Shown one piece after another: positions 137 to 25,761 of a stretch of DNA of 64,000 nucleotides. The stretch comes from Nitrospinaceae bacterium (GTDB taxonomy: Bacteria; Nitrospinota; Nitrospinia; Nitrospinales; Nitrospinaceae), in contig OZ245011.1 in NCBI GenBank assembly GCA_965223665.1, positions 3,744,001 to 3,808,000 of the forward strand, in the 5' to 3' direction. Each line of letters begins with the position of its first letter. Within the stretch, counting starts at the first letter, position 1. The notes beneath the pieces are model-generated. The model was not told the DNA's origin and did no database searches. It worked only from the letters and a program-made list of their open reading frames with translations. Both the position numbers and the translations under genes were made by a program.

Positions 137-1405
137 ATGGTAATAGTAAAAGATACTGTAATTTTTATTTTATTTTTTATTTGTTTGGTTCCTGCATTAG
201 GGGGAGTCGACATTCTTTTAGCCCAAGGCTACCTTGGTTTTGCCATACCCTTCCCATCATTTATTTTTTTAATGTTATTGTTTTTACCGTTAGTTTTTTC
301 AGGAATTTTTAAAGATGGCGGTAGGGAATTCCTTAGGAACTATCACCTGACTCTGTGGATAACCTTACCTTTGTTTTTTTGCTCCATTATTTGGATTCTT
401 TATGGTCTCCATCCACATGCGACCTTACTTTTAAGACCTAAAATAATGCTGGTTTATCAATTTTGTTTGGTGATCATGGTAATTGCCATTGGGGCCTCAA
501 ATTATTTTATAGAGCATTATCGGAAATTGTCTTTTGGGATTTTGGTTGTTATTTGTACTGGACTTTGGATAGATTTCTTTTTTCCTCAAACCTTTTCTTC
601 TATTCCGTCTAGAGCAGCTGGATTTAGTTTAAATTCCAATTTAGCTGCACTGGAATTGGTATTTACTACCATCGCTACTATTGATTGGAAAAAAAACTCT
701 TATTGGAATTTGCTAATTTTTGGTTTTGCAGGGGGAAGCATTTTTTTAACGCTATCTGTTGGAGGGATTGCTTTATTTATTGGTACATTTGGGCTTTATT
801 TGCTAGTGATTTTGTTGCAAAGAGGGTTCAGTTTAGGGCAGATCATTTTTTTTCTGATTGCCCCAATTTTTCTTCTCTTAATATTGGTTCCAGTACTAAG
901 TTATTTTGTGGAATCTACAGATACCTTTTCTGGAAGAGGTGCGCAGCTAAGATTTGATGAAATCCTTGCATTTTTTTCAGGAGATTTTTCTTTCTTAACG
1001 GGTCATGAAAGAGGAATGATTGCTGGTAGATTTTGGGATGATATTAATGAATCTCCAATTATTGGCCACGGGGTAGGTTACTATATCCCTGAATTAGGTC
1101 CGCATAATATGTACTTGTTATTTTGGGCGACCACCGGAATTGTTGGTTTGCTTATTTATATTAGTTTTGTTTTGGGTTCTTTTTACTTTTTTATACGTCA
1201 TAACAATACCCAGGGAATGGTGTTTGCTTTTGTTTTCTCAATTGCGAGCTTATATAACCACACTTTGCTAAGTACTCATAATATCACCTCATTTTTAGGA
1301 ATACTTGCCGTGATTGTGGCGAAGAAATCCTATATGCAATCATCCGAAGATCTAAATAAGGAAAAAAAGTTTTTATCAGGACCGAATCTTCAATTAAATA
1401 ATTAG
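137..1405 (+). CDS. O-antigen ligase / Wzy-like polysaccharide polymerase
   Basis: 422 aa, many TM helices, RAAGF..NSN motif, P(IIG)HG.G and HN.YL motifs of the Wzy_C/WaaL family; flanked by glycosyltransferases. Confidence 0.8.
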   Translation: MVIVKDTVIFILFFICLVPALGGVDILLAQGYLGFAIPFPSFIFLMLLFLPLVFSGIFKDGGREFLRNYHLTLWITLPLFFCSIIWILYGLHPHATLLLRPKIMLVYQFCLVIMVIAIGASNYFIEHYRKLSFGILVVICTGLWIDFFFPQTFSSIPSRAAGFSLNSNLAALELVFTTIATIDWKKNSYWNLLIFGFAGGSIFLTLSVGGIALFIGTFGLYLLVILLQRGFSLGQIIFFLIAPIFLLLILVPVLSYFVESTDTFSGRGAQLRFDEILAFFSGDFSFLTGHERGMIAGRFWDDINESPIIGHGVGYYIPELGPHNMYLLFWATTGIVGLLIYISFVLGSFYFFIRHNNTQGMVFAFVFSIASLYNHTLLSTHNITSFLGILAVIVAKKSYMQSSEDLNKEKKFLSGPNLQLNN

Positions 1406-1474
1406 TATGAAAGTTACTGTTGGATATTTAGAAATGTTTAGTTTTTCTCAATGAAGTAACTTAAGAACACTCTT

Positions 1475-2614
1475 ATGAAAAAAATTGTATTTGTAATTCG
1501 AGCCTTAATGTATGGGGGAGCGGAGCGGCAATTAATTACTCTTGCAAAGGCTCTATGCAAAGAGCATGAGGTGACCGTAGTTTATTTTTACGGAGGACCC
1601 ATGGAAAAAGAGTTTGCTGATTCTACAGTTAATTGTATCCATTTGGAAAAACGGGGTCGTTGGGATTTTCTATTTATTTTTAGAATATTTAAATACTTTA
1701 AACCAATGAATCCCGATGTAATTCATGGTTATATGGAAGTGGGAAATATATTTTCTATTTTGTTAAAACCTTTTTTTCCAAAAACAAAAATTGTTTGGGG
1801 AATCCGAGCTTCTAATGTTGATTTCTCTAGGACAGATTGGTTCGTTCGTCTTGCTGACCGGGTTGAAAGATTGTTGGCTAGATTTGCAGATTTAATTATT
1901 TTTAATTCTAAAGCGGGGTTGAAAATTTTTGAAAAGAAGGGATTTCCAACCAAAAATGCTATTGTCATTCCCAATGGAATTGATTTGGATCGATTTCAAC
2001 CAGACATAGGGTGCCGGCAAAAATTTAGAAAGGAACTAAACCTAGGAGATGAAATATTGATAGGTAATGTGGGTCGATTAGCTCCTCAAAAAGACCATAC
2101 TACATTTATACATGCAGCAGCTATTTTATTGAAAAGTAGGAATGATGTGAAGTTTGTTTGTGTGGGTGGCATTCAGGATCAAGAATATACAAAAGAAATA
2201 AAGGCACTTACTGAAGAACTGGGCCTAAAGGAAAAACTAATTTGGTTGGGTTCAAGGAGCAACATGAGTGAGGTTTATAATGGATTAGACATTCTAACTT
2301 CTTCGTCTTCTTGGGGAGAAGGATTTTCTAATGTTGTAGGAGAAGCAATGGCTTGTGGGGTCCCAAGTGTTGTTACAGATGTGGGAGATTCTTCGTGGAT
2401 TATAGGTGATCTTGGAGTGACAGTTCCACCCAATAATCCTGAAGCTTTAGCTGAAGGATGGGTTAAATGTATAGAGGGTTTAAAAGAAAATAGAGGAAAC
2501 CCAATTCGTGCGATTATAAAGAATAACTTTAGTGTTGAGAAGCTGGTAGAAAGAACAAAAAAAGCTCTCGGCTTAAATTCAACTGAGCTTAAAGAGAAAA
2601 CTTTAATATTGTGA
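1475..2614 (+). CDS. GT4 family glycosyltransferase
   Basis: GGAERQ N-terminal motif, IPNG, GR..PQKD, EGFSNVVGEAMACGVP.V.TDVG. Confidence 0.92.
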   Translation: MKKIVFVIRALMYGGAERQLITLAKALCKEHEVTVVYFYGGPMEKEFADSTVNCIHLEKRGRWDFLFIFRIFKYFKPMNPDVIHGYMEVGNIFSILLKPFFPKTKIVWGIRASNVDFSRTDWFVRLADRVERLLARFADLIIFNSKAGLKIFEKKGFPTKNAIVIPNGIDLDRFQPDIGCRQKFRKELNLGDEILIGNVGRLAPQKDHTTFIHAAAILLKSRNDVKFVCVGGIQDQEYTKEIKALTEELGLKEKLIWLGSRSNMSEVYNGLDILTSSSSWGEGFSNVVGEAMACGVPSVVTDVGDSSWIIGDLGVTVPPNNPEALAEGWVKCIEGLKENRGNPIRAIIKNNFSVEKLVERTKKALGLNSTELKEKTLIL

Positions 2615-3804
2615 CTTCCCAGGAAGATCTCCAAAAAATTAAAATCCTCTTTCTTACCACTAATCTGGGAACGGGTGGTGCTGAAACCATGCTGTTAAAC
2701 TTCCTGGAACGCATTGATCGCAAAGTTTTTCAACCCTATGTAATTTCTCTAATAAGTATAGATAAAATTGGTGAAAAGATCCGAAACTTAGGAGTGCCCG
2801 TTTTTGCAATGGAATTAAATCCAGCTTCAGTCAATCCTTTTCCAATTTTAAGATTTTTAAAGCAAGTTCGAAAGATCAAACCAGAAATTATTCAGGGATG
2901 GATGTACCATGGGAATTTGTTTTCTTTAATAGGTAATTGGACTTTACGAAAGAAAGCATTGCTTTTTTGGAGTATTCATCACTCAGTTTATAGTTTGAAA
3001 AATGAAAAAAAGTTGACGGCTTTACTTATTCGTTTAAGTGCCAGGTTTTCTAGCAAAGTTAATAAAATTCATTACGTTGCTGAAGAATCAGCCAAGTTGC
3101 ATAAAATCATTGGATTTTGCGAAGATAACGCTATTTTGATTCCTAATGGATTTGATACTGATAAGTTTAAACCAGATTCCCATGCAAAGATTCAGTTGAG
3201 AAATGAATTAAGCATAACGGATGGTTCGTTATTGGTGGGTTTGGTTGCAAGATACCATCCAATGAAAGATCATAAAAATTTGATTCAAGCGGCAAAAATT
3301 GTAAAGGATCGTATTCCAAAGGTAAAATTCCTATTAGTTGGAAATGATATTGATGAAAAAAATATAGAGTTAAATAAATTAATTGATCAGTACGATTTAA
3401 AAAATCACGTTATACTATTAGGAGTAAGAGAAGATATTCCAAAGATTGTGGCCGCATTAGATGTTGCAGTTAACTGTTCCTATTCTGAAAGCTTTCCATT
3501 GGCTGTGGGAGAGGCAATGGCTGCAGGGGTTCCCTGTGTAGTAACAGATACTGGAGCGTGTGGTTGGGTTGTTGATAATACCGGGAGGGTTGTACCAGTA
3601 AAAGATTCTCCAGCTTTAGCCGAAGGAATCCTTGAATTATTGAGTTTAGAACCTAATGAAAGGGCTAATTTAGGTGAAAAGGCTAGAGAAAGAGTTCAAG
3701 AAAATTTTGCTTTAAATAAAATAGTTAAAAAATTTGAAAATCTTTATTTGGATGCTGTTAAAGAAAAAAATGAAACAGTTAATCCTTCCAATTCAACAGA
3801 TTGA
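2611..3804 (+). CDS. GT4 family glycosyltransferase
   Basis: GGAE, IPNGFD, ARYHPMKDH, ESFPLAVGEAMAAGVP; 4-nt overlap with the previous gene. Confidence 0.92.
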   Translation: MTSQEDLQKIKILFLTTNLGTGGAETMLLNFLERIDRKVFQPYVISLISIDKIGEKIRNLGVPVFAMELNPASVNPFPILRFLKQVRKIKPEIIQGWMYHGNLFSLIGNWTLRKKALLFWSIHHSVYSLKNEKKLTALLIRLSARFSSKVNKIHYVAEESAKLHKIIGFCEDNAILIPNGFDTDKFKPDSHAKIQLRNELSITDGSLLVGLVARYHPMKDHKNLIQAAKIVKDRIPKVKFLLVGNDIDEKNIELNKLIDQYDLKNHVILLGVREDIPKIVAALDVAVNCSYSESFPLAVGEAMAAGVPCVVTDTGACGWVVDNTGRVVPVKDSPALAEGILELLSLEPNERANLGEKARERVQENFALNKIVKKFENLYLDAVKEKNETVNPSNSTD

Positions 3805-5144
3805 TGAAGCTTAAAACCAAACTATTCTATTTAATTAGAAATAATTTATTTTATAAAAATTGGTATAAATTTTATCAAGATTTGTGGAAATTAGATCCCA
3901 CGTCTTGCCAGCTTCTTCTAAGAGATTTATTAGTTCATGCCCGTGAAAATGTTCCTTATTATAAGGACAAAATTCCTTTCGATAATAAACCAGAAAACCT
4001 GTTATCTCAGATCCCTATTTTAAGAAAAAACCAAATTCGACTTCACTTTGAAAACCTAAAAAGCACGAAAGTTGATTTAACGAAAATTTCTTTGCAAAGT
4101 TCTGGTGGTTCCACTGGTAAACCAATTACTCTAGTGATTGATAATGATTATTCAGAATGGTTGATTGCATCAGAAAATTATTACTATAAAAAGTACATGG
4201 GATTTCTTTTTGCTGAACCTACCAAAATAATTTTGTGGGGGGCTCATAGGGATATCAAACAATTTCAGGGGTTAAGGGCTAAGGTTTCTCACTATCTAAG
4301 TAACATTACTCTATTAAATGCTTTTGAAATTTCGGATCGTAAATTTGATGAATTTATTGAAATAATTAATAGTACAAAACCTGTTTTTTTAAGATCCTTT
4401 GCCGGGTCGTTGTTTTTGCTGGCCAAATATATTAAGGAAAAAAATATAAAAGTTTTTAAGCCAAAGTTTATTGGGACTTCTGCTGAAACTTTAAGGCCCT
4501 TCATGCGGGAGTTAATCGAAGAAGTTTTTGAAACACGGGTAAGAGATTATTATGGAAGTAGAGAGGTTGGTATTATTGCGGCAGAATGTAGAAAGGGGAA
4601 AATGCATACTTTGCCATTTTTCAACCATGTTGAAGTAGTAGACGGGAAAGGGGATTCGGTAAAGCCAGGTGAAGAGGGAGTTTTGTTAGTTACTGGTTTG
4701 AAGAATTATTCTATGCCCTTAATTCGATATGAAATTGGAGACACTGCAGTATTGGGAAGTTCTTGTGATTGTGGAGGAGATACTCCTGTATTAGAAAAGG
4801 TTACAGGAAGAATTACAGACCACTTTGTTACTTCCACTGGGAAAATGGTCCACGGACAATATTTTACTCGACTGTTTTATTTCAGCAAATGGGTAGGGGA
4901 GTTTCAGATATTGCAAAAAGACTTTAATTTAATTGAAATACAATATGTCCCAACTAATGATCCTTCACAAATGGAAATTGAGGAAATTAATATAAAAGTT
5001 CGTAAGGTTATGGGAAATGAATGTGAAATTAATTGGGTTAAAATGGATTCAATTCCCCCAAATGCGGTTGGAAAAAGATTGTTTACACGAAGTTTTGTGT
5101 TTGAACAAGGGATGGATTTTAATACAAAAGATATGGTGAAATGA
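3804..5144 (+). CDS. Phenylacetate-CoA ligase family / CapK-like adenylate-forming enzyme
   Basis: SSGGSTGKP loop, YGSRE, MPLIRYEIGD, GR motifs; ATG overlaps the upstream TGA. Confidence 0.88.
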   Translation: MKLKTKLFYLIRNNLFYKNWYKFYQDLWKLDPTSCQLLLRDLLVHARENVPYYKDKIPFDNKPENLLSQIPILRKNQIRLHFENLKSTKVDLTKISLQSSGGSTGKPITLVIDNDYSEWLIASENYYYKKYMGFLFAEPTKIILWGAHRDIKQFQGLRAKVSHYLSNITLLNAFEISDRKFDEFIEIINSTKPVFLRSFAGSLFLLAKYIKEKNIKVFKPKFIGTSAETLRPFMRELIEEVFETRVRDYYGSREVGIIAAECRKGKMHTLPFFNHVEVVDGKGDSVKPGEEGVLLVTGLKNYSMPLIRYEIGDTAVLGSSCDCGGDTPVLEKVTGRITDHFVTSTGKMVHGQYFTRLFYFSKWVGEFQILQKDFNLIEIQYVPTNDPSQMEIEEINIKVRKVMGNECEINWVKMDSIPPNAVGKRLFTRSFVFEQGMDFNTKDMVK

Positions 5145-6259
5145 AAATTGTTTTTATTGCTCACCATGCGAAAGATGTACTAAATTTTCAAGGTCCTCTT
5201 CTTAAGGAAATATGTTCGTTGGGTCATTCTCTTGTGGCTCTCCTTCCGAAATCTACCCCAGATATTCAAAAGGGATTCTCCGATTTAGGGATTGATTTCA
5301 TCCCTATCTCTTTAGATCGAACAGGGATGAATCCCCTTATGGATGTAAAATCTTTTATTAACATATTTTTATTGATCAGGAAAATCCGGCCGCAATTGGT
5401 TTTTACCACGGCGATTAAGCCAAATATTTATGGGTGTCTTGCTGCACAATTGAACGGAATTCCGCAAATTTATAGTATGCTCCAGGGCTTAGGATATGCT
5501 TTTGAAAGAACAGGGGCAAAAGGTAGGGTGGCAAATTGGATCGCAAGGACTTTATATAAGATTGCATTTAGGAAAAACCAATCAGTTTTTTTTCTTAATC
5601 CGGACAATTGCGCTACTTTTTTAAAACTTGGCCTTGTAAAAGAAAATCAAGCTGTTTTGTCAAATGGAGTTGGAGTGGATACGGAGATTTATTCTGAAGC
5701 ACCCTTGGATACTTCAAAAGTGACTTTTTTGGTAATTGCAAGGTTAATCAAAGATAAGGGAATAATTGAATATGCCCAAGCGGCAGAAACACTGAAAAAG
5801 AAATACCCGGATGTGGAGTTCAAAATTCTTGGTCCAATGGATAGCAATCCATCAGCCATTTCATCTAACCAAGTTAAAAAATGGGAGGAAGAAGGAATCC
5901 TTGAATATTGCGGAGTTACTGACGATGTTCGTCCTTATATTGCCTCTTGTAATGTTTTTGTATTACCTTCATATCATGAAGGGATGCCTCGTTCTGTCTT
6001 AGAGGGAATGGCTATGGGGAGGCCAATAATAACTACCTTTGCTTCGGGGTGTAAAGAAACCGTGAATGAGGGAGTAAATGGCTATTTGGTACCGATAAAA
6101 AATGCGGAAGCTTTAGCCGAATCGATGGAGAAATATATTAAGGAACCGGATTTGATTGAAGCGATGGGTAAAGCGAGCCGCCAAATGGCGGTTGAAAAAT
6201 TTGATGTGCACAAGGTAAATGATAAAATTCTTCGAACCATGCGATTAAGGAAAAACTAG
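5141..6259 (+). CDS. GT4 glycosyltransferase (PglA/CapM-like)
   Basis: IKPNIYG, GLG, ARLIKDKGI.EY, LPSYHEGMPRSVLEGMAMGRPIITT. Confidence 0.9.
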   Translation: MKIVFIAHHAKDVLNFQGPLLKEICSLGHSLVALLPKSTPDIQKGFSDLGIDFIPISLDRTGMNPLMDVKSFINIFLLIRKIRPQLVFTTAIKPNIYGCLAAQLNGIPQIYSMLQGLGYAFERTGAKGRVANWIARTLYKIAFRKNQSVFFLNPDNCATFLKLGLVKENQAVLSNGVGVDTEIYSEAPLDTSKVTFLVIARLIKDKGIIEYAQAAETLKKKYPDVEFKILGPMDSNPSAISSNQVKKWEEEGILEYCGVTDDVRPYIASCNVFVLPSYHEGMPRSVLEGMAMGRPIITTFASGCKETVNEGVNGYLVPIKNAEALAESMEKYIKEPDLIEAMGKASRQMAVEKFDVHKVNDKILRTMRLRKN

Positions 6260-6322: not shown

Positions 6323-6331
6323 TGTTATAAT
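6323..6331 (+). promoter_or_regulatory. Extended -10 sigma70-type promoter element upstream of the DUF4956-CotH-VTC module
   Basis: TG-T-TATAAT in the 245-nt gap before 6505. Confidence 0.45.
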
Positions 6332-6504: not shown

Positions 6505-7188
6505 ATGAACAAGGCCCAAACATTCCAAGATTTTTTAGTTAACCAAAGCGCCGAAATTTCTGTATGGGGATTTTTAGTAAATATCATTTTGGCCATTATT
6601 TTTTCATTTATATTGGCGCAAATGTATATTCGGTTTGGAAATGTACTTTCAAATCGAAAAATGTTCTCAAAGAACTTAATTTTTATATCGATGACTACTA
6701 TGCTGGTCATCACTATTGTGAAATCTTCTTTGGCGCTTTCTTTAGGTCTGGTGGGTGCTCTTTCAATTGTTCGTTTTCGCGCTGCTATAAAAGAACCTGA
6801 AGAATTGGCTTATTTGTTTTTGGCGATTGCAATTGGACTTGGTTTTGGAGCGAATCAGGGACTTATCACTATTTTGGCTTTTATAATTATATTGGGAGTA
6901 ATAATTTGGCTTAATTATTCTCATTCTGTTGAAGAAAGCCAAAACCTTCATTTAAGCATATTCTGTGATACCCAACCCAAACTGGAATTAAACCAATTGG
7001 TTTCTGAATTAAAAAAGCATTGTAATAAAGTAGTGTTGAAACGGTTTGATGAAGATAAGGACACAATAAACTCCACTTTCTTGGTGGAGTTTAAAGGTGC
7101 GGATGACTTAGAAGAAGCAAAAAAATCTCTCCAAAAAATAAATGAAACTGTAAAAATTACCTATTTGGATTCCCGCGGAGTTTTTTAA
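6505..7188 (+). CDS. DUF4956 family membrane protein
   Basis: Signature SLALSLGLVGALSIVRFR..IK.PEE..YLF..I.IGL..G, 4-5 TM helices and a soluble ACT-like C-terminus. Confidence 0.88.
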   Translation: MNKAQTFQDFLVNQSAEISVWGFLVNIILAIIFSFILAQMYIRFGNVLSNRKMFSKNLIFISMTTMLVITIVKSSLALSLGLVGALSIVRFRAAIKEPEELAYLFLAIAIGLGFGANQGLITILAFIIILGVIIWLNYSHSVEESQNLHLSIFCDTQPKLELNQLVSELKKHCNKVVLKRFDEDKDTINSTFLVEFKGADDLEEAKKSLQKINETVKITYLDSRGVF

Positions 7189-9861
7189 ATGTTAATCAAG
7201 GATGAGTATGGATTTACGAATACCATCCAAGGATTAGGACTTTTTTTTAAGAAAAGAAAGTTTCTAATTGGATTGGTGTTGTTTTGTTTTTATACCTTTT
7301 TGGTTTTTGGAGTATCTTCCTATTTGGTAAAACATGGTTTTTGGGGGACTTTTCTAAAACCATGGATAATTAAAAACGTAAATGTACCCATAGATTATAT
7401 AAAAAGCTTTTCTGCCCAACCGGAATCCATTGTTTTAGATATTAAACAAAAAGATGTTCTAAAGCTTGCCCATAAGAGAAAAGAAGCCTTATCCGTAGGT
7501 ACTCTTTACTATTCTTCTGAAGAAGATTGGGTCCCTGCCAAATTTACCAACAATAATAAAACGTACAAAGTCAAAATTCGGTTAAAAGGAACACGGTCTT
7601 CTCATTGGGAAGATGAAGAAGTTTGGTCTTACAAGGTAAAAATGAAAAAGTCGGATACTTTTATGGGGATGCGCAGATTTGCTTTGCAGGGACCACACAA
7701 CAGAAATTTCCTTAATGAATGGATGTACCAAAAATTATATAAATATTTAGGAGTTATTAGTCTACGGTACGACTTCGTTGAGGTAACGGTAAACGGAAAA
7801 AAAATGCCTGTTTATGCTGTCGAGGAAAATTTTGATAAAAGACTAATTGAAAATAATCAAAGAAGGGAAGGTCCCATTTTCCGAGCAAAAATGATTCCTT
7901 TTTTGACTGACGAACCGATTGATGTTTATGGAATGAGTAAATACAAAGATGATGCTTCCGCATTAAAATTAGTTCATTCCGTAGAGAGCTTGATGGAAGC
8001 TTTTCGATTAGGTACACGTTCTACTTCAGAGGTGTTTGATATTGAAATGTTGGCCAAATCTTTGGCAGGTATGGACTTGGGAGGAAGTTTCCACTCTGTG
8101 AATTATTCTAATATAAGGTTTTATTATAATCCAATCACCGGCCGGGTAGAGCCCATACCTTATGATAATCAACACCTTCAACCTTTAGAATCGACCCAAT
8201 TGCTAGGTGAGGGACATTGGATTTCTCCAGAAATTTATAAAGATATTGGAGGCAAAATATATATAGATGGAACTGAACGGGGTATGCATTGGTTGTTTCT
8301 ACTGTTTCAGGATCGGGTATTTTACAAAAAATATATTGAAGCCCTGGAAATGATTTCAAAGAAAGAATACCTGGATGGATTTTTTAACAGTATCCAAGAA
8401 GAACAAGAAGAAAAGTTAAATACTCTATATAAAAGTTGGCCTCAATATAAATTCGAGGGAAAAAAAATTATTTATAGTAACCAAGAGTATATTAGAAAAG
8501 TCCTGCACCCTGAAAAAGCCGCCTTAGCCTATTGGGAAGAAATTGACTCAAGTTCAAATACAATTTATTTAAATATTGCAAACATTCATTCTCTACCAAT
8601 TGAAATAATGAGTCTTGTTGTTTCAAATGATTTGGTTTTGGAACCCATCGGCGAACATATTCTGGTTGGGAAAAGACGCCGAGGAGGGCCTTTGCTGGCT
8701 GGTAATACGGACCTGAAAAATGTTTACGAAACGTTATTGATTGGAAGGGATGGAAACTCAAAGATTAAATACCACCGTATTGGTTTTAAAATTCCAGAGG
8801 GTATCCATTGGGATTCTGCGTTAAAATCAAATTTGAAAATTGGAACAAGGGTTTATGGAACGAAAAATTTAATTCAAGATTCTATAATTCCCTGGAATAA
8901 AGAAAGTGACTTGATGCGAATGCCTTCTAATGTAGATAAATTTTCCTTTCTCAAAATTGACTCTGATAAAAAAACGATTCAATTTAAAAGGGGAAGTTGG
9001 GTATTAGATTCTGATCTGATAGTGCCTTCGGGTTATCGTTTTGTGGCTGTAAAAGGTACTCAGGTAGAATTGAAAAACAAGGCAAAAATTATTTCATTCT
9101 CTCCAGTGGAATTTATTGGATCACCAGAAGATCCTGTTAAATTTTTCTCGAACAATCATGCGGGACAGGGAATAATTATTATGAACGCAAAGGATGAATC
9201 TATTGTAAATCATGCAGAGTTTTCTGGTTTATCTAATCCCTTTTTATCCGGATGGTCTGTTACTGGGGCCGTTACTTTTCATGAATCACCCGCGACATTT
9301 ACAAATGTTAAATTTTTAAACAATTATTCCGAAGATGGGCTTAACCTTGTAAGGTCAAAATTCTTTATGGACAAAGTTTTGTTTCAGGGAACTTTTTCCG
9401 ATGCGTTTGATTCAGACTTTTCGACAGGAAAAATAAAATCCATTACCTTTTTAAATTGCGGTAATGATGGAATCGATATATCCGGTAGCCAGGTAGAAGT
9501 CGACCATATTGAAATCAACGGCGCTGGAGATAAAGGGGTTAGTGCTGGAGAAAATAGCCAACTTTCAATTAATACCCTGGTGGGTAAAAACGCAAATATT
9601 CTCGTTGCTAGTAAAGATTTATCCAGGGTGAAAATAAAAAAAGCGAAACTTGAAAATTCAAAATTTGGGTTTGCGGTTTTTCAAAAGAAAAGCGAGTTTG
9701 GTGCTGCTTCCATTGATGTTGACCAATTGGAAATGGCCGATTTAGAGTTACCTTTCCTAATTGAAAAAGGCTCTTCATTAATTGTCGAGGGCGAGCAAAT
9801 TAAAAGTAAGTATAAGAATATTAAAAAGTTGCTTTATCCTCCAAACCCTGATCAATCTTAA
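7189..9861 (+). CDS. CotH-family kinase with N-terminal membrane anchor and C-terminal right-handed beta-helix
   Basis: KKRK + TM at aa ~21-46; VKIRLKG, SYKVK, LNE, FVEVTVNG, YAVEE, NIRFYYNP..EPIPYDN (CotH-like); C-terminal EDGLN/SDAFDSDFS/NDGIDISGS/DKGVSAGE beta-helix turns. Confidence 0.8.
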   Translation: MLIKDEYGFTNTIQGLGLFFKKRKFLIGLVLFCFYTFLVFGVSSYLVKHGFWGTFLKPWIIKNVNVPIDYIKSFSAQPESIVLDIKQKDVLKLAHKRKEALSVGTLYYSSEEDWVPAKFTNNNKTYKVKIRLKGTRSSHWEDEEVWSYKVKMKKSDTFMGMRRFALQGPHNRNFLNEWMYQKLYKYLGVISLRYDFVEVTVNGKKMPVYAVEENFDKRLIENNQRREGPIFRAKMIPFLTDEPIDVYGMSKYKDDASALKLVHSVESLMEAFRLGTRSTSEVFDIEMLAKSLAGMDLGGSFHSVNYSNIRFYYNPITGRVEPIPYDNQHLQPLESTQLLGEGHWISPEIYKDIGGKIYIDGTERGMHWLFLLFQDRVFYKKYIEALEMISKKEYLDGFFNSIQEEQEEKLNTLYKSWPQYKFEGKKIIYSNQEYIRKVLHPEKAALAYWEEIDSSSNTIYLNIANIHSLPIEIMSLVVSNDLVLEPIGEHILVGKRRRGGPLLAGNTDLKNVYETLLIGRDGNSKIKYHRIGFKIPEGIHWDSALKSNLKIGTRVYGTKNLIQDSIIPWNKESDLMRMPSNVDKFSFLKIDSDKKTIQFKRGSWVLDSDLIVPSGYRFVAVKGTQVELKNKAKIISFSPVEFIGSPEDPVKFFSNNHAGQGIIIMNAKDESIVNHAEFSGLSNPFLSGWSVTGAVTFHESPATFTNVKFLNNYSEDGLNLVRSKFFMDKVLFQGTFSDAFDSDFSTGKIKSITFLNCGNDGIDISGSQVEVDHIEINGAGDKGVSAGENSQLSINTLVGKNANILVASKDLSRVKIKKAKLENSKFGFAVFQKKSEFGAASIDVDQLEMADLELPFLIEKGSSLIVEGEQIKSKYKNIKKLLYPPNPDQS

Positions 9862-9884
9862 GGGATAAGTTTACCTGAGTTCTT

Positions 9885-10571
9885 ATGGATGGAATTGAGT
9901 CTTATAGATATGAGAGAAAGTTTTTGGTGACGGCTCTTTCTTATGAAGAGTTAAATCAAAAAATCCTCCTCCATCCTGCCATATTTCAGCCGATTTATCA
10001 TAAACGTTACGTAAACAATATTTACTTTGACAGCCCAGATTTAACCAGTTTTGTTGACAATGTTGAAGGAGTTGGAAAAAGAACAAAATTTAGGATTAGA
10101 TGGTATGGATCTTTATCAGGGAAAATTCAAAAGCCAGTTTTGGAAATTAAAAATAAAACTGGATTTCTATGTAGTAAAGAATTGTATCCTATAGAGGGTT
10201 TTACCATAGACGAAGAATTTTCAATTAAAAAGGTTATGGACAGTGTAACGCGTTCGAAAATACCTAAAAGTGTTGTTGTTCAATTGGGTCTATTAGAGCC
10301 CGTTTTAATTAATAGATATTTAAGAAACTATTTTTTATCCATTGATGGCGATTTTAGAATTACTATCGACAGGGAATTAAGTTTTTTCCCCTTTGATTTA
10401 TCTTTTCCAAGGTTATTGGATCACGAAATGAAAGAATCGTTTAGTATTCTAGAACTAAAATATGCTTTAGAAAAGGACGATGAAGCTCAGAGAATTTCAA
10501 ATGCCTTTGATTTTCGCCTTACAAAAAGTTCCAAATACGTAAATGGCGTTTTTCGTTTAATGGCGGAATAA
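9885..10571 (+). CDS. VTC domain / polyphosphate polymerase domain protein (CYTH-like tunnel metalloenzyme)
   Basis: RYERKF, NIYFD, R.KFRIRWY, LEIK.K, Y.R.YF, RITID, ILELKY, SKY motifs. Confidence 0.88.
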   Translation: MDGIESYRYERKFLVTALSYEELNQKILLHPAIFQPIYHKRYVNNIYFDSPDLTSFVDNVEGVGKRTKFRIRWYGSLSGKIQKPVLEIKNKTGFLCSKELYPIEGFTIDEEFSIKKVMDSVTRSKIPKSVVVQLGLLEPVLINRYLRNYFLSIDGDFRITIDRELSFFPFDLSFPRLLDHEMKESFSILELKYALEKDDEAQRISNAFDFRLTKSSKYVNGVFRLMAE

Positions 10572-10624: not shown

Positions 10625-11542
10625 TTAAGCGCCTTGAAAAAAGTTGTATGTTTTTGTCAAACCTTTTTCTAGAGAATAAGTAGGTTTCCAACCAAAGGAT
10701 GAGTTAAGCTTTCTAAAATCGATCACACTTCTACGTTGTTCCCCTTTTCTAGGCGATTCATGGGAAGCTTCAATGTTTTTCCCAGAAATTTTTGTCAGGT
10801 ATTTACTCAGACTGTTGACAGTCGTTTCTTGTGCAGTACCTACATTAAAAACTCCCTGACAATCCTCTGAGAGCGCTACATTGTTTGCTTGTACCACATC
10901 GAAAACTGAAACAAAATCTCGAGTTTGCTCACCATCTCCATAAATAATGGGAATTTGATTTCCTATTAATTTTTGACAAAAAATTGCAACTACACCCGCT
11001 TCACCGTGAGGATCTTGACGAGGGCCATATACATTGCTATATCTCAATACAGCTGTATTCAAATTGTATGTTTGATTATAAAAACGCATATAATTTTCAA
11101 CGCTAAACTTGGCAATTCCATAAGGGCTGAGGGGCCGACAAGGATGTTTTTCACAGGCAGGAAAATATTCCTGTTCTCCGTAAATAGCTCCTCCAGTGGA
11201 AGCAAAAACAAATTTTTTCACTTTGTATTCGTTCGCTAGTTTTAATATTTTCAAACTTCCAAGTATATTGATCTCGGCATCAAAGCTAGGATCAGAAACT
11301 GATTGGGTGACTGAAATTTGTGCGGCGTGATGGTTAATCTTATCAATTTTCTCATTTTTGAAAATGGTTTCGACTTCGGGATCCATCAAATCCATTTCAT
11401 AAAATTTTGCATCGGGATGAATATTACTTTTTTTTCCTGAAGAAAGATTATCAAGAACGATTACCCGATAACCTTTAGAGATATAAGACTCTACAATATG
11501 TGAACCAATGAAACCGGCCCCCCCGGTAACTAAAATGTTCAT
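10625..11542 (-). CDS. NAD-dependent epimerase/dehydratase (UDP-glucose 4-epimerase-like)
   Basis: MNILVTGGAGFIGSH, HAAQ, YGIAK (YxxxK), NVYGPRQ, GDGEQTRDF; start placed at the Met of MNILVTGG. Confidence 0.92.
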   Translation of the reverse strand: MNILVTGGAGFIGSHIVESYISKGYRVIVLDNLSSGKKSNIHPDAKFYEMDLMDPEVETIFKNEKIDKINHHAAQISVTQSVSDPSFDAEINILGSLKILKLANEYKVKKFVFASTGGAIYGEQEYFPACEKHPCRPLSPYGIAKFSVENYMRFYNQTYNLNTAVLRYSNVYGPRQDPHGEAGVVAIFCQKLIGNQIPIIYGDGEQTRDFVSVFDVVQANNVALSEDCQGVFNVGTAQETTVNSLSKYLTKISGKNIEASHESPRKGEQRRSVIDFRKLNSSFGWKPTYSLEKGLTKTYNFFQGA

Positions 11543-11579
11543 ATATATTCCTTGAGATAACTTTGAGTTACTAAATGAT

Positions 11580-12992
11580 TTATCTACCCTTACCAAAAAC
11601 CATGAGATGTGCTGTTTTTAATAGTATAGCGGCATCAAGTTTAAAAGAGTAGTGTCGAATGTAATAGAGATCATATTCGAACTTTTTGATCGCATCATTA
11701 AAGTCAAACCCATAGTTAAAGTTTACTTGCGACCAACCCGTAATCCCGGGTTTTACAAGATGTCTGAAGCGATAACAAGGAAATTGGCTTTCATAAGCTT
11801 GAGTCAATTGGTGTTGCTCAGGCCTAGGTCCGATAATACTCATATCTCCCTTCAAAACATTCCAAATTTGAGGAATTTCATCCAAATGGGAGGCCCGTAA
11901 CCATTTCCCTAACTTGGTAATTCGGTCATCATTCGAATTGGTGCAAGCATCTCCGTGGTTTTCTCTTTGGACCATGGTTCTATATTTATAGACTTGGAAG
12001 GGTTGATTGTTTTTCCCAGTTCTTGCCTGCTTAAAAATTGCTGGACCCTTTCCTTCTAGTTTAATTAACAAGGGAATAATCACAAACAATGGACTCATTA
12101 GAATTAAACTTAAAGAAGCAATCGTTATGTCAATTAAGCGTTTAATATTTTCAAAAATGGGTTGTCGGGCAAATTGAAAACCAGGACCTAATAATAATTG
12201 AGGATGCATTATTGATGCAGGTACTCTTTTGAAATATTCTTCATAAAACTTGTCTACACTTAGTATTGGAACTTGACCAAAATGACATTCAATTAATTTC
12301 TCAACCATTTCTTTAGGCATTCCTCTTCGATCAGCGGCTAAAACAACCGCATCATGCATACCGTTTAAATTTTCTAATTGCCAAAGAGGATCTCCTTCTA
12401 CAATAGGAGAATCGTTGTCATTTTGTGAAAGTCGTTCTCCAACTTTTTCTAAATTGATTTCAACAAAACGTAATCCCTGTTTCAATTTTGATTCTGTGCA
12501 ATCTTGATAAATAGTTTGCGCTACAGGACCTGAACCTATAATTAGTAGTTTTCTTCCATCCAGAAACTTATTGGCCCACCTTGATAAAGATCTTCTATAA
12601 AGAAGAGAAAGGGGTAAAAAAGTTAAAAAGACTAATGGCAAAATCCCACGTCCCAGGTTATTTTCGGGTTGCATTGCAAAAATATAAACAACCGAAACCG
12701 TTAAAATTGCAGCGGATACTAAAGCAATCACATGTTCGCTGGCATATTCAAGACTCAATAAATCTCTTTTAGGGGAGTAGCCGTCAATAATATATAGAGC
12801 TAAAAAAGTAAATCCAAATGGGATTAACCATTGAATTCCCATAGCTGTAGAAATATCTAGGTTGTCAAAACGAAATAGATTGAAAACAAGAAAGAGTAAC
12901 CAAAGGCTCAGTGCATCTAATAGTAAAAAAGTGGTTGCAATTCCTTTTTTGAAGGCCATATGTTTTTTAGATTGTATAGTTGTCGTCATCAT
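11580..12992 (-). CDS. Exopolysaccharide polyprenyl glycosylphosphotransferase (priming sugar transferase)
   Basis: 4 N-terminal TMs, Rossmann-like IIGSG, KR.IDI, KYRTM, DEIPQ.WNVLKGDMS.IGPRPE, KPGITGWSQV, YDLYYI. Confidence 0.92.
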   Translation of the reverse strand: MMTTTIQSKKHMAFKKGIATTFLLLDALSLWLLFLVFNLFRFDNLDISTAMGIQWLIPFGFTFLALYIIDGYSPKRDLLSLEYASEHVIALVSAAILTVSVVYIFAMQPENNLGRGILPLVFLTFLPLSLLYRRSLSRWANKFLDGRKLLIIGSGPVAQTIYQDCTESKLKQGLRFVEINLEKVGERLSQNDNDSPIVEGDPLWQLENLNGMHDAVVLAADRRGMPKEMVEKLIECHFGQVPILSVDKFYEEYFKRVPASIMHPQLLLGPGFQFARQPIFENIKRLIDITIASLSLILMSPLFVIIPLLIKLEGKGPAIFKQARTGKNNQPFQVYKYRTMVQRENHGDACTNSNDDRITKLGKWLRASHLDEIPQIWNVLKGDMSIIGPRPEQHQLTQAYESQFPCYRFRHLVKPGITGWSQVNFNYGFDFNDAIKKFEYDLYYIRHYSFKLDAAILLKTAHLMVFGKGR

Positions 12993-13081
12993 TATTTATA
13001 CAGATTTACATAAAATATCAATTTATAGATTTACATTCCAAATGCTGTATGAAAATAATAAAAACTAAGCCTCCGCTTATC

Positions 13082-13101
13082 AATACCCCTGTAGGGGTAT
13101 T
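13082..13101. promoter_or_regulatory. Perfect palindrome AATACCCCT-GT-AGGGGTATT (candidate operator or hairpin)
   Basis: 9-bp arms with a 2-nt spacer upstream of the priming glycosyltransferase; resembles TACCC..GGGTA boxes of CsoR/RcnR-type repressors. Confidence 0.35.
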
Positions 13102-13383
13102 TTTATTGGGGTTGGATTTGGGAAATTTGAGATTGAGATAAGTTTAAGAATTTTATGGTGAGTTTAATATGCCCCATCCCCTTGTAAACCATTCACTTTA
13201 AAAGCGCTATTTTATTAAAAGGTATTGTAAATTGTCAATAGTTTAGATGGGTCAGGAAGGGAATAGATAGATAAAAGAAAAATTCTTGATGAAAATGTAA
13301 CAGAATCTAAATTCTTTTGTGATCAAATTTTAGAGGAAAATGTAAATTTAAATGAAGGATAAAAGTTTAAATTTTTTGTCCCA

Positions 13384-14301
13384 CTAAAAGAAACTTCGTG
13401 GGACATGGATAATATCTCCTGGTTGCAATAGTAGATTTTTAGATAAATCTCCATCAAAAATTACTTTGTCCAATTCCACCTGAATCTTTTGAATGGCCTT
13501 ACTACCGGAACTGGATTTTCTATAAACCTGCGTTGATCTGGGGCGTGCCACATCTGTTAAACCTTCTGCCATTAAAATAGCATCCAAAACCGTCATTCCC
13601 TCATGAAAGGTGATAACTTGTGGCCTCTGTACCTCTCCCATGATATTGATACGCTTATCAAAATTATCAGCAATGTAAACCAGGTCGTCCTGTTGAAGCC
13701 AAATATTTTGGCTAAAATCTCCATTATTCACTAAATCATGAATATTAAGTTCCAGTTTCTTTCCATTTCTAAGGAGATAGGAATTATGCAAATCAGCTTG
13801 CTCAGTAAAGCCTTTTCCAAGTGAAAACAAGTGCAATAAAGAAATAGGGCGGTTGACTTTATAAGTATCGGGGGCATTCACCTGTCCCCAAATTGAAATT
13901 TTAATACTGTTAATTTCCTTAACGATAACCGTAATACTTGCATCGGTAATATAGTCCCTGAGGCGATCAGCCATCTTTTCTTTCAATTGGTCAGGAGTCA
14001 GACCTTTAGCCTTGACATCTCCAATGAGAGGGAAAGAAATGAAACCATCAGGCCTGACAGGCATTTCAGTGGTTAATTCCTTATTTCCCCATACAGCAAT
14101 TTGGAGTACATCTTCAGGGCCTAAAAGAAAATCCCCTTTAGCTGAACCTTTTCCAGGTGCACCTGAGTCGCTTATACCGCCATTATTCATTTCTTTTGGA
14201 TTGTCTGAAATGTCAAAATCGAAAGGGGCGGCGAAACTAATGGATTGAATTAAAAAAAGGGTCATCAAGGTAACCAAGGGAATCAATAATCTATCTCGCA
14301 T
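13384..14301 (-). CDS. Polysaccharide export protein (OPX/Wza family) with SLBB domains
   Basis: Signal peptide, LGPEDVLQI.VW...VRPDG.ISFPLIG PES motif, two SLBB repeats, ends LQPGDIIHVP. Confidence 0.9.
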   Translation of the reverse strand: MRDRLLIPLVTLMTLFLIQSISFAAPFDFDISDNPKEMNNGGISDSGAPGKGSAKGDFLLGPEDVLQIAVWGNKELTTEMPVRPDGFISFPLIGDVKAKGLTPDQLKEKMADRLRDYITDASITVIVKEINSIKISIWGQVNAPDTYKVNRPISLLHLFSLGKGFTEQADLHNSYLLRNGKKLELNIHDLVNNGDFSQNIWLQQDDLVYIADNFDKRINIMGEVQRPQVITFHEGMTVLDAILMAEGLTDVARPRSTQVYRKSSSGSKAIQKIQVELDKVIFDGDLSKNLLLQPGDIIHVPRSFF

Positions 14302-14443
14302 AAGGTACTCCTTAGAGGCTTTTGAAAATAACGGCCAAAGTTTTGAAATTGTTTGGAAAGAATTTTTAAAATGGAGCTTATTATATGATATCGCGAAAAA
14401 CGATATTTCTCTACAGAAATTTTAATACAAAGGGGTGACTACT

Positions 14444-15829
14444 TTAAAAAGTGGCAATGACACTGAGGCCAACTAAATTATTGCTGTATTCACGATCTAC
14501 AAAGTTGGAATCATTAGTGCGGAATTGATATCTCAATTGGGCTTGTAACCATTCCTGAATATGGTAAGCAAGGTTAAGGGAAAATAAGAAAAAGTTATCC
14601 TCTCTGATTCTTTGTAATCCGGGCGGAGGAGGTGTAGGGTTTGAGTCTCCCGCAAAATCCTGAACAGCAACATCATAATCTAGGCGGTTATATTGTGCTC
14701 TTCCAGTAATAGTCCATTTTGTTAAAATTTGTTGAGTCACAGAAAACCCTACAACATGTCTAAGAAAGGATTGGTTCACATTGAAGGTAGCATCAAGAAC
14801 GTCTCTTGTAACAAAAAATCTATAACTCGTTCTTTCTTTGGGACGGTAAGTAACGTTGAAAAAGAATACGAAATCGGTGCGATTCTGACTCAGTTGTGAA
14901 AGTACTTGCTGAAAAATCATGGATTGAACGCCCAAGCCTAAGTTAACCAAAATTAAAGGAGTCGCTTGCCATTTCCAGGTACCGTAAAACGTATGTGTAT
15001 TGGAATGAGCGTTATTTGGAGAGAGTTCATCATACCTTATCTTTTGATAGCGATACTGAATTCCAAAAGCTGTTTGCGGAGTCCATTGAAATAGAAACTG
15101 AGGATTAATAATGTAAATAATATCGTCTTGTGTGTCTGCAGGAAAGCTAAAATCTTCTCGCTGAATACTTCCATCCAAAAGAAATTGAAATCGCTTGGTG
15201 AGATTATAAATAAAATTTAAATAGCCCCTGTAATCAAACCTTTCAATCCGTGGATTTAAGTTGGCTGCAATTTCAGGATTTCGCAGTTGTCGGGTATCTA
15301 AATAACTTCCCCCTATTTTTAACTCAGAACGCCCACCTTTTCCACCAAACAATAAATACGAGTCAATTTCATGAATAAAAGTATCTTGATCATTGAGGTC
15401 TACAAAGTCCTCATAGCGGCCGTTATATTGAAAATGAAAGCCAAATACTTCTCCAGTTTCACGGGGTAAATCTATTGCAAGAGTAGGAATATAAGCAAAA
15501 ATAGTATCCTCAATTTTACCCTCTGAATTCCCATTCGGAAATGCTCGATCGGCAAGTAGGAAAACATTATTATTATAAACAACTTCCATACCAAAGCTGG
15601 GAGTAATAACCCACCGCCCCAAGTGTGTATTTTTTAATGCCTGCGCCTGGGTAACCAAAGTACACAAACCTAGAAGCAAAAAAAGGAAAATCCTGGGAAT
15701 CCAGTTTTGAGTTAATTGGGTGTAATATTTTGAAAAGGTTGGATCAACTTGTCGCATTTTCTTTTTAAATGATTCCATTTCTTTGAAAAGCGTAGTATTT
15801 TGAAAAATCAGCGTTAATTCCATTTCCAC
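14444..15829 (-). CDS. Outer-membrane beta-barrel protein of polysaccharide export (BBP2-like)
   Basis: Signal peptide ending AQA, YNNNVF motif, alternating aromatic beta strands, C-terminal Phe; immediately upstream of OPX; true start probably downstream of 15829. Confidence 0.78.
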   Translation of the reverse strand: MEMELTLIFQNTTLFKEMESFKKKMRQVDPTFSKYYTQLTQNWIPRIFLFLLLGLCTLVTQAQALKNTHLGRWVITPSFGMEVVYNNNVFLLADRAFPNGNSEGKIEDTIFAYIPTLAIDLPRETGEVFGFHFQYNGRYEDFVDLNDQDTFIHEIDSYLLFGGKGGRSELKIGGSYLDTRQLRNPEIAANLNPRIERFDYRGYLNFIYNLTKRFQFLLDGSIQREDFSFPADTQDDIIYIINPQFLFQWTPQTAFGIQYRYQKIRYDELSPNNAHSNTHTFYGTWKWQATPLILVNLGLGVQSMIFQQVLSQLSQNRTDFVFFFNVTYRPKERTSYRFFVTRDVLDATFNVNQSFLRHVVGFSVTQQILTKWTITGRAQYNRLDYDVAVQDFAGDSNPTPPPPGLQRIREDNFFLFSLNLAYHIQEWLQAQLRYQFRTNDSNFVDREYSNNLVGLSVIATF

Positions 15830-23831: not shown

Positions 23832-23867
23832 TTGGGATTGAATAAGAATATATTTCTAAACCTTATT

Positions 23868-24542: not shown

Positions 24543-24555
24543 GGATTAAAAAAAA

Positions 24556-25760: not shown

Positions 25761-25761
25761 A

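Follow-up and report, generated by a model that had tools for sequence, protein, structure and literature searches.

A three-gene module in a polysaccharide locus

The window analyzed here, a stretch of 64,000 nucleotides (nt) from a Nitrospinaceae bacterium (GenBank assembly GCA_965223665.1, contig OZ245011.1, positions 3,744,001 to 3,808,000 of the forward strand), carries near its beginning a trio of genes that encode a DUF4956 membrane protein, a CotH-like protein with a C-terminal beta-helix, and a small VTC-domain protein. The original prediction for this trio, made from the DNA without database searches, was a system in which VTC makes polyphosphate (polyP), DUF4956 moves it across the membrane, and the CotH/beta-helix protein uses it to phosphorylate or polyphosphorylate an exported glycan or envelope proteins. 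The genes, in window coordinates, are:

6505-7188, forward strand: DUF4956 gene, 227 amino acids (aa); Pfam PF16316
7189-9861, forward strand: CotH-like/beta-helix gene, 890 aa; Pfam CotH PF08757 at residues 145-436
9885-10571, forward strand: VTC gene, 228 aa; Pfam PF09359

The three genes are co-oriented, with gaps of 0 nt (DUF4956/CotH-like) and 23 nt (CotH-like/VTC) in the list of open reading frames (ORFs), exactly where the original prediction had placed them, and the three domain assignments on which it rested all exceed the Pfam cut-offs: DUF4956 with E = 1.4e-16 (61.1 bits against a cut-off of 30.6), CotH with E = 2e-12 (47.7 bits against 23.8), and VTC with E = 6.7e-29 (101.5 bits against 23), the last spanning profile positions 2-232 of 235. 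NCBIfam offered no model for any of the three proteins. The nearest relative locus lies in a genome of the same genus (G001), where VTC is 89% identical and all three gene sizes are equal.

A recurrent and co-inherited unit

The trio is a widespread module, co-inherited and adjacent across many phyla. We surveyed 80 loci (L numbers below) from one-genome-per-species contigs, chosen by VTC similarity only and searched with our own hidden Markov models (HMMs). In 68 of these 80 loci, DUF4956 and VTC are neighbors or have just a long CotH gene between them; the 80, as the best VTC relatives, form a biased sample that is not phylogenetically independent and has no formal background. In 47 loci DUF4956 lies no more than 300 nt from VTC and shares its strand, and in 21 DUF4956, a long CotH gene, and VTC follow one another in the window's order; DUF4956 sits elsewhere in the locus in 4 and is absent from 7 (in 3 of these the contig ends within 1 kb of the VTC start), and in 1 locus our HMM missed VTC. 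Long-type CotH genes were found in 57 of the 80, a lower bound for loci with any CotH because our HMM missed short canonical CotH genes in at least seven loci (L009, L040, L048, L052, L053, L066, and L072). The trio loci are labeled Bacteroidota, Planctomycetota, Chlorobiota/Ignavibacteriales, KSB1, Poribacteria, Verrucomicrobia, Omnitrophota, Anaerolineales, Acidimicrobiia, and Clostridia, and one metagenome-assembled genome is labeled Woesearchaeota. Across phyla, and leaving aside the near-identical copy of the same genus, identity is 43-56% for VTC, 27-40% for the CotH-like protein, and 55-72% for DUF4956, the most conserved of the trio.

Phyletic linkage points the same way, with the proviso that the surveyed genomes are related and their counts are not independent events. 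Among 61 genomes of the host's own order, VTC occurs in 11, DUF4956 in 10, and a Pfam CotH match in 9; every DUF4956 and CotH carrier is VTC-positive, none of the 50 VTC-negative genomes has either partner, and VTC and DUF4956 copy numbers match where they are multiple (2/2, 3/3). All 17 VTC-positive genomes in a Bacteroidota sample of 101 carry both DUF4956 and CotH. In 14 control genomes VTC and DUF4956 match in the same three, and CotH in those three plus Bacillus subtilis, whose CotH acts in the ATP-containing mother cell; the module carriers among the culturable controls include Bacteroides thetaiotaomicron and Corynebacterium glutamicum. Adjacency and co-inheritance thus bear out the recurring gene neighborhood that the original prediction had named.

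Several loci show other arrangements. In L014 (8914-15580), a CYTH-domain protein is encoded directly upstream of VTC and a 1579-aa Beta_helix/NosD protein downstream, with no DUF4956. In L029 (5593-8997), a Wzy_C gene and a PKD/Beta_helix protein gene precede DUF4956-VTC, and there is no long CotH. Canonical CotH genes, which keep the catalytic Asp discussed below, adjoin DUF4956-VTC in L048, L052, and L066. Four Bacteroidota loci (L009, L040, L053, and L072) combine both CotH types in one shared architecture that runs DUF4956, VTC, a short Asp-type CotH (CHB_HEX_C + Fn3_assoc + CotH), Wzy_C, and a long CotH with His in place of the catalytic Asp, and continues with a ~350-aa protein without a Pfam match, a family 4 glycosyltransferase (GT4), an epimerase, and DegT.

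Glycan genes around the module

Pfam annotation of the flanks agrees with the predicted setting of the trio, between a glycosyltransferase operon and a convergent export/priming operon:

137-6259, forward strand: glycan operon upstream of the trio (Pfam, NCBIfam)
137-1405, forward strand: Wzy_C, polymerase/ligase-like (Pfam)
1475-2614, 2611-3804, and 5141-6259, forward strand: three GT4 glycosyltransferase genes (Pfam)
3801-5144, forward strand: F390-synthetase-like adenylating enzyme (Pfam; TIGR02304-like, below cut-off)
10625-15829, reverse strand: convergent operon downstream of the trio (Pfam, NCBIfam)
10625-11596, reverse strand: NAD epimerase/dehydratase (Pfam)
11580-12992, reverse strand: Bac_transf priming transferase (Pfam)
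13384-14301, reverse strand: Poly_export/SLBB, Wza-type (Pfam)
14444-15829, reverse strand: EpsL-like outer-membrane barrel (partial TIGR03014 and TIGR03016 matches, below their cut-offs)

Such surroundings are common among the relatives. We annotated with Pfam 26 of the 31 loci of at least 18 kb, taking all ORFs in 10 and, in the other 16, those of 150 aa or more that lie no farther than 4.5 kb from the module; four near-duplicates (L007, L036, L051, and L070) and L075, which has no VTC ORF by our HMM, were left out. Glycan genes clearly flank the module in 15 of the 26 (L009, L011, L014, L015, L019, L023, L028, L029, L032, L038, L040, L053, L054, L072, and L080), marginally in 2 (L066 and L071), and not at all in 9 (L017, L030, L044, L045, L048, L052, L065, L069, and L086). 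A Wzy_C gene adjoins the module in 8 of the 26; four of these share the one Bacteroidota architecture, leaving at least five architectures, with the window as an extra case. With three Wzy_C genes in the 4.35-Mb genome of the host and four in the 9.4-Mb genome G061, the chance of finding one within 10 kb is ~1%, a background drawn from Wzy_C counts in five genomes rather than from matched random loci. MBOAT and/or AlgX genes, indicative of O-acylation, adjoin the module in 6 of the 26 loci. Within the limits of this informal background, the trio is enriched near glycan loci.

The adenylating enzyme (3801-5144) and the EpsL/TIGR03016-like protein (14444-15829) together suggest a putative PEP-CTERM/exosortase-style exopolysaccharide locus.

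The VTC protein

Hydropathy reveals no hydrophobic or transmembrane (TM) segment in the VTC protein, which the original prediction had read as free of a signal peptide, and no other Pfam family, CYTH included, matches it even at E <= 10. Neither an SPX domain nor a fused three-helix membrane domain is present in its 228 residues by Pfam and hydropathy. Homologues number 937 of 1058 scored candidates at E <= 1e-5, and the 120 listed are all stand-alone proteins of 212-265 aa. A search for fused forms of 400-2000 aa returned none at E <= 1e-8, which is weak evidence.

When a profile of 32 VTC homologues was run against the PDB, all six matches were chains of yeast Vtc2, Vtc3, and Vtc4 (best, Vtc2 at 1.1e-6 and Vtc4 at 1.7e-5). 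Invariant in the 32 homologues are K12, R70, R72, E87, K89, E190, and K192, which align with Vtc4 K200, R264, R266, E279, K281, E426, and K428; the Vtc4 numbers follow from the alignment rows of 3g3q, 5iiq, and 8i6v (native number = 3g3q chain number + 185), and, the alignment to Vtc4 being weak (E 1.7e-5), these equivalences are probable rather than certain. We take K200 and K281 to be tunnel residues required for activity. The available text of PMC9911596 describes Vtc4 R264A/R266A/E426N as a catalytically impaired mutant used for the cryo-electron microscopy structure. The first strand (beta1) of the window protein reads R-Y-E-R-K, that is, R-x-E-x-K, its leading Arg being shared with R-Q-T-T-K (R-x-T-x-K) of Vtc4. 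Hydrolytic CYTH enzymes carry an E-x-E-x-K motif at this point.

The protein could instead be a tunnel-fold triphosphatase or another triphosphate tunnel metalloenzyme (TTM), with the genetic linkage reflecting some other substrate, e.g., a nucleotide- or triphosphate-linked precursor. To our knowledge, every bacterial TTM/CYTH protein characterized to date is either a hydrolase or a cyclase; TTM hydrolases typically share the conserved tunnel residues, which do not discriminate between activities; and in L014 a CYTH-domain protein is encoded directly beside VTC. Against these points stand the 101.5-bit VTC match without any CYTH counterpart, a PDB search that yields Vtc2/3/4 chains only, and the replacement of the first Glu of the hydrolase motif by Arg, as in Vtc4. 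We therefore regard a triphosphatase as very unlikely; the residues of the bacterial protein fit a polyP polymerase without proving one, and we treat it as a candidate polymerase below.

The CotH-like/beta-helix protein

The model of the 890-aa protein has a mean pLDDT, the per-residue model confidence, of 84 and resolves four parts:

7255-7332, forward strand: TM anchor, residues ~23-48 (hydropathy, model), preceded by KKRK at residues 21-24
7417-8511, forward strand: CotH-like kinase-fold domain, residues ~77-441 (fold search, Pfam)
8521-8883, forward strand: beta-sandwich linker, residues ~445-565 (model secondary structure, pLDDT), with a low-confidence loop at 497-524
8899-9822, forward strand: right-handed parallel beta-helix, residues ~571-878 (model, structural matches)

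Its single TM segment is predicted to run N-in, C-out, which would place the bulk of the protein outside the cytoplasm; these topology counts agree with the extracytoplasmic location originally read from KKRK and one TM segment, and the beta-helix likewise emerges where one had been predicted. Among 50 long-type homologues of the locus survey, a basic-flanked anchor is seen in 31 (mean K+R of 4.3 before the TM segment and 1.5 after it), a signal peptide and then Cys in 18, and neither in 1. The family comprises 2892 cluster representatives at E <= 1e-30; the best 150 of these, to which all counts out of 150 refer, are mostly 806-942 aa long (three outliers have 670, 1117, and 1128 aa), and 138 of them have an N-terminal hydrophobic segment. 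An M-x-I-K motif (MLIK, MIIK, MKIK, or MRIK) recurs at the cytoplasmic N-terminus of TM-anchored long homologues; in the window protein this N-terminus corresponds to residues 1-22 (7189-7254), possibly a docking peptide for a cytoplasmic partner.

The CotH-like domain superimposes on B. cereus CotH 5jd9 with Z 27.8 and a root-mean-square deviation (rmsd) of 2.8 A over 316 residues at 20% identity (VIA-align), and Foldseek gives E 2.6e-12. According to the available text of PMC7821199, the D228Q and D251A variants of B. subtilis CotH are inactive. The B. cereus chain has a D-x4-N loop and an Asp 23 residues on (224/229/247), matching the B. subtilis spacing, and from this pattern we derive the numbering shift between the two proteins (minus 4). 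Two alignments, a profile-based one to 5jd9 and one by MAFFT that includes eight Asp-type paralogues, agree on the site of the window protein: His302 falls in the column of the catalytic Asp (B. subtilis D228), Asn308 corresponds to the loop Asn, and Asp326 occupies the position of the metal-binding Asp (B. subtilis D251). Conservation at these positions is as follows:

His302: His in 28 and Glu in 2 of 30 aligned homologues; His in 144 of 150 representatives
Asn308: Asn in 20 of 30 aligned homologues; Asn in 134 of 150 representatives
Asp326: Asp in 23, Glu in 5, and Asn in 2 of 30 aligned homologues; Asp in 137 and Glu in 8 of 150 representatives

K133, H139, S147, and E212/E213 are kept in at least 141 of the 150 representatives, in which N314 and P315 are conserved as strongly as the other positions of the site. 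Judged from these alignments, the domain is not a canonical CotH kinase, its catalytic Asp being replaced by a near-invariant His, and its site is remodeled yet under strong selection; the predicted atypical kinase is thus retained as a fold and lost as a canonical active site. That so remodeled a site is so conserved suggests a still active enzyme whose chemistry has changed and not an inert scaffold, and a phospho-histidine mechanism on His302 is speculation. Like Bacillus CotH (5jd9/5jda), the window domain has the fold, the Pfam family, the metal-binding Asp, and the loop Asn; unlike it, it has His for the catalytic Asp, is membrane-anchored and predicted to be extracytoplasmic rather than assembled in the mother cell, and carries an extra beta-sandwich and beta-helix, and no sporulation genes are evident in the window.

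The same genome encodes two tandem CotH-like paralogues of ~580-590 aa with His in the catalytic-Asp column (L090:7278-9059 and L090:10310-12049; C1:4066000-4084000), each gene followed by one for a membrane-anchored protein without an assigned family. They lie in a second glycan locus, with GT4, GT2-methyltransferase, RmlA/B/D-like, GHMP kinase, and nucleotidyltransferase genes, far from the genome's only VTC/DUF4956 pair.

The best structural matches of the beta-helix are AlgG 4ozz (Z 26.9, 275 residues aligned, rmsd 2.6) and AlgE4 2pyg (Z 26.4), with AlgE4/AlgE6 together at Z 26.2-26.4; phage tailspike depolymerases, the Vibrio RbmB lyase, GH28, and GH87 follow (Z 22-27 overall). Structural atlas matches are Beta_helix PF13229-type clusters, and Pfam itself has no match in residues 601-890. 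A line of residues along the helix, D716, D738, D741, D743, D763, K782, and D810, is conserved in 146-148 of the 150 representatives, better than the CotH-site residues, and could plausibly form a glycan- or cation-binding catalytic groove. Like AlgG (4nk6/4ozz), AlgE4 2pyg, RbmB 9ozl, GH28, GH87, and the tailspikes, the domain is a right-handed parallel beta-helix of ~300 residues, and like the periplasmic members of this group it is predicted to be periplasmic, is encoded next to genes for polysaccharide export, and has an acidic groove that is conserved; unlike them, it shows an identity of only 7-15%, no family-specific catalytic motif, and a fusion to a kinase fold that those enzymes lack. 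AlgG/AlgE-type epimerases have a D-P-H-D catalytic motif. No such motif occurs in the translation of residues 571-878, where the invariant residues are Asp and Lys only.

These features invite a different assignment, in which the large protein is chiefly a periplasmic polysaccharide-processing enzyme (a lyase, hydrolase, or epimerase-like protein; a counterpart of AlgG/AlgL, PelA, or the Streptococcus intermedius hydrolase SIR_1591), the CotH-like domain is a pseudokinase that binds a nucleotide, polyP, or a glycan, and polyP, brought to the envelope by VTC and DUF4956, serves there as a matrix component or counter-ion rather than as a donor. The beta-helix is the best-conserved part of the protein, its top structural relatives are glycan-modifying enzymes, and the kinase fold has lost its catalytic Asp; in addition, a beta-helix/PKD protein and Wzy_C accompany DUF4956-VTC in L029, and a giant beta-helix protein accompanies VTC in L014. 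However, the kinase-like site is conserved beyond what a scaffold would need (His 144, Asn 134, and Asp 137 of 150), the epimerase motif is missing, and canonical Asp-type CotH genes take a place beside DUF4956-VTC in three loci. We consider this assignment unlikely, if a serious contender, and continue to favor a catalytic role of the kinase-like site.

The DUF4956 protein

DUF4956 relatives number at least 8000, all scored candidates lying at E <= 1e-5; among the best 120 listed, identity to the window protein is 55-94%. An unbroken invariant stretch spans residues 75-92 of the homologue alignment, with many more invariant positions up to 116. The AlphaFold2 model, with a pLDDT of only 62, has five helices (20-44, 51-71, 74-92, 98-115, and 119-139), consistent with the polytopic protein originally described, and ends in a beta-alpha-beta-beta-alpha-beta domain (residues ~146-222, low confidence) that a wide fold search places among ACT/ferredoxin-like folds at Z 8-9.5. 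Positive-inside counts put the loop 42-58 (four K/R), the RFRAAIKEPEE motif, and the ACT-like domain on the predicted cytoplasmic side; RFRAAIKEPEE, residues 90-100, is an invariant basic/acidic motif. The fold search matched the C-terminal domain only and says nothing about the membrane part. The C-terminal domain of MgtC (2lqj) scores Z 8.0, one of many ACT/ferredoxin-like folds of equal score, and MgtC PF02308 matches residues 59-140 at E = 1.1 (10.1 bits, where the cut-off is 31.4).

Long "DUF4956" ORFs in L048 and L078 were considered as fusions and rejected, Pfam finding DUF4956 only; these and others, such as one in L010, may be over-extended ORF calls.

Bacteroidota without VTC carry a divergent DUF4956 subfamily with a partial Pfam match (positions 5-105), seen at L087:2564-5468 (genome G090), where DUF4956 shares an operon with an HlyD-like membrane-fusion protein and a 410-aa protein without known identity. 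Only L087 of the VTC-less loci was annotated, the others being compared by ORF size: two other VTC-less DUF4956 loci match the ORF sizes of L087, which are also those in L089. The HlyD-like neighbor in L087 may mean that DUF4956 provides the inner-membrane component in systems of the export type.

Relation to the Gram-positive Pel loci

The trio has a published counterpart. In the available text of Whitfield et al. (bioRxiv 10.1101/768473), genes for cotH, a "polyphosphate polymerase," DUF4956, and DUF4832 are accessory genes contiguous with Gram-positive pelDEADAFG operons, the S. intermedius set being SIR_1594, SIR_1593, SIR_1592, and SIR_1591, respectively. According to the accessible text of PMC12345266, S. 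intermedius mutants without the DUF4956-type or the CotH-type gene lose >50% of their Pel-dependent aggregation in one medium, and their Pel levels shift in different directions. The authors state there that the synteny was not found outside Pel loci, a limit that does not hold in our locus survey. A related set, with VTC-domain genes, CotH, a chitin-synthase-like gene, and 222- and 226-aa membrane proteins annotated "tubulin/FtsZ," appears in NELoc-2 of Clostridium perfringens as described in the available portion of PMC2879425. The original remark that no functional characterization was known consequently needs amending on the genetic side, where the gene set has been described and deletions made, and stands for biochemistry within the full-text literature searched.

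The window module resembles the Pel accessory set in that cotH, VTC, and DUF4956 are contiguous and adjoin an exopolysaccharide locus; CotH is predicted to be secreted or extracytoplasmic, DUF4956 is a multi-TM protein with a cytoplasmic ACT-like domain, VTC is cytoplasmic, and a glycan-active domain accompanies the set. It differs in its diderm host, in a locus of Wzy/Bac_transf/Wza/EpsL-like rather than pelDEADAFG type, and in a CotH of a distinct long subfamily with His for the catalytic Asp, a TM anchor, and a fused beta-helix, where the Pel module has an FN3 domain and a separate DUF4832 hydrolase. Among the 13 proteins of the window scanned with Pfam and NCBIfam, no Pel-specific family was found, and the trio is not contiguous with pelDEADAFG. 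The diderm host, the Wzy/Wza-type locus, and the distinct CotH subfamily are what is new here relative to the Pel set.

The proposal made for the Gram-positive Pel loci, as given in the text available to us, is that the substrates of CotH are proteins, either of the envelope or of the machinery that handles the polysaccharide. Extended to the window, this yields a regulatory module in which CotH has such protein targets, DUF4956 is an MgtC-like modulator of phosphate/ATP homeostasis with an ACT sensor, VTC makes or hydrolyzes a cytoplasmic phosphate signal, and nothing is translocated. The published hypotheses, the differing Pel shifts of the S. intermedius deletions, an ACT-like fold of the kind typical of ligand-sensing domains, and a JGI name of DUF4956 homologues that refers to YhiD/MgtC-type proteins are all in keeping with it. 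Its difficulty is one of geography: CotH is predicted to be extracytoplasmic, whereas VTC and the ACT domain are predicted to be cytoplasmic, so something must cross the membrane if they share a function. Moreover, the fused beta-helix and the carbohydrate-binding-module-type domains of the canonical paralogues (CHB_HEX_C and Fn3_assoc) favor glycan over protein targets, and the MgtC similarity of DUF4956 reaches only E = 1.1. We judge a purely regulatory module to be distinctly improbable.

A proposed model for polyphosphate-dependent glycan modification

We return to the reading in which polyP is made, exported, and used as a donor. We posit that the trio works at the outer face of the inner membrane, on the polysaccharide made by the Wzy/Wza-type locus around it. 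VTC would make polyP from ATP at the membrane; DUF4956, probably oligomeric and an analogue of the yeast Vtc1/3/4 membrane channel, would pass the polyP chain or phosphoryl groups across it; and the periplasmic CotH-like domain would use the polyP donor to phosphorylate or polyphosphorylate a glycan held by the beta-helix, perhaps via phospho-histidine on His302. The beta-helix may also trim or otherwise process the glycan chain. The periplasm has no ATP pool, and the predicted periplasmic location of the CotH-like domain would argue against ATP as its donor. We infer all three activities (polyP synthesis by VTC, translocation by DUF4956, and donor use by CotH) from domains, topology, linkage, and context.

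The closest precedent is the yeast VTC complex (available text of PMC9911596; PDB 3g3q and 8i6v), with which the window protein shares the tunnel-domain family and probable equivalents of K200, R264, R266, K281, and E426. In both, the catalytic domain is cytoplasmic and has a genetic tie to a small multi-TM protein, a likeness that suggests that synthesis is coupled to membrane passage. Unlike the yeast complex, the window VTC lacks SPX and a fused membrane domain, DUF4956 is an unrelated family with five predicted TM helices, and the proposed product would go to the periplasm and not to the vacuole.

How far this model can be trusted depends on the claim. That the trio is one functional module acting on envelope polysaccharide we hold to be much more probable than the chain of events just outlined, from polyP synthesis through DUF4956 translocation to phosphorylation of the glycan by the CotH/beta-helix protein, which we advance tentatively as a reading that falls somewhat short of an even prospect. 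Its most ambitious form, a compact bacterial and archaeal counterpart of the VTC machine in which polyP is the phosphoryl currency of an ATP-free compartment and a His-variant CotH (poly)phosphorylates exopolysaccharide through phospho-histidine, is doubtful. The original prediction as a whole fares accordingly: its domains, topology, linkage, and glycan context are upheld, and its CotH kinase proves not to be a canonical one.

Several observations weigh against the polyP model. No evidence supports contact between DUF4956 and VTC; a prediction of the DUF4956-VTC complex, with a score of 0.00, gave no answer and is evidence neither way. Between DUF4956 and the membrane domain of yeast VTC no similarity could be detected. 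The three S. intermedius deletions differ from one another in phenotype so far as the accessible text of PMC12345266 goes; besides the differing Pel shifts of the DUF4956 and CotH deletions, no aggregation defect is reported there for the VTC-type deletion, and the available text of its preprint allows that polyP may stay cytoplasmic. The tunnel residues do not prove a polymerase because they are shared with TTM hydrolases, and the CotH-like domain, its catalytic Asp lost, may transfer no phosphate at all, which is conceivable since D228Q is inactive in B. subtilis. The locus survey has the sampling bias stated above. In Bacteroidota, 16 of 33 CotH-positive genomes have no Pfam VTC match, 13 of 30 DUF4956-positive genomes have no VTC, and a DUF4956 subfamily, annotated in L087, lives beside an HlyD-like adaptor without VTC; because VTC carriers have both partners while both partners occur without VTC, VTC seems to serve DUF4956 and CotH rather than to be served by them. 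Finally, the full-text literature searched held no biochemistry of any bacterial trio member; other papers may. The idea of polyP export with polyP as a donor was likewise not stated in that literature, and other papers may hold it.

The phosphoryl donor of bacterial extracytoplasmic kinase-fold enzymes is unsolved and no bacterial route of polyP export is established, and for both questions the trio offers a small, genetically tractable system. If the polyP model is true, it would imply a previously unrecognized class of phosphorylated or polyphosphorylated envelope glycans, and phosphate-bearing exopolysaccharides of this kind would have consequences for phosphorus cycling, metal binding, and the charge of the biofilm matrix. 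Should the polyP part prove wrong, there would still be the long His-variant CotH/beta-helix family, a large, unnamed class of putative periplasmic glycan-directed enzymes.

Promoter region and other features of the window

The original prediction also gave the trio a TGnTATAAT element of its own. One such element is present:

6323-6331, forward strand: extended -10-like element TGTTATAAT, 174 nt 5' of the DUF4956 start

Occurrences of TGNTATAAT in the window number 2 against 3.65 expected, and 91 of 100 shuffles carry at least 2. Because this count is below chance expectation, TGTTATAAT is by itself no evidence of a promoter, and the element at 6323-6331 is a weak candidate only; its presence is confirmed, and its frequency is not above chance. 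A -35/-10 scan returned 8 sites versus 16.0 in shuffles. The terminator scan found no terminator-like site between 6259 and 6505, so the trio could be transcribed from its own promoter or by read-through from the glycosyltransferase operon.

Farther along the window, a 3532-aa ORF (51817-62415, reverse strand) encodes an N-terminal calcineurin-like phosphoesterase (Metallophos), CBM96, and many HYR repeats, and its product is probably a giant surface or secreted protein. Three leucine-rich-repeat (LRR_6) proteins are encoded in a cluster at 22899-26565, on both strands.

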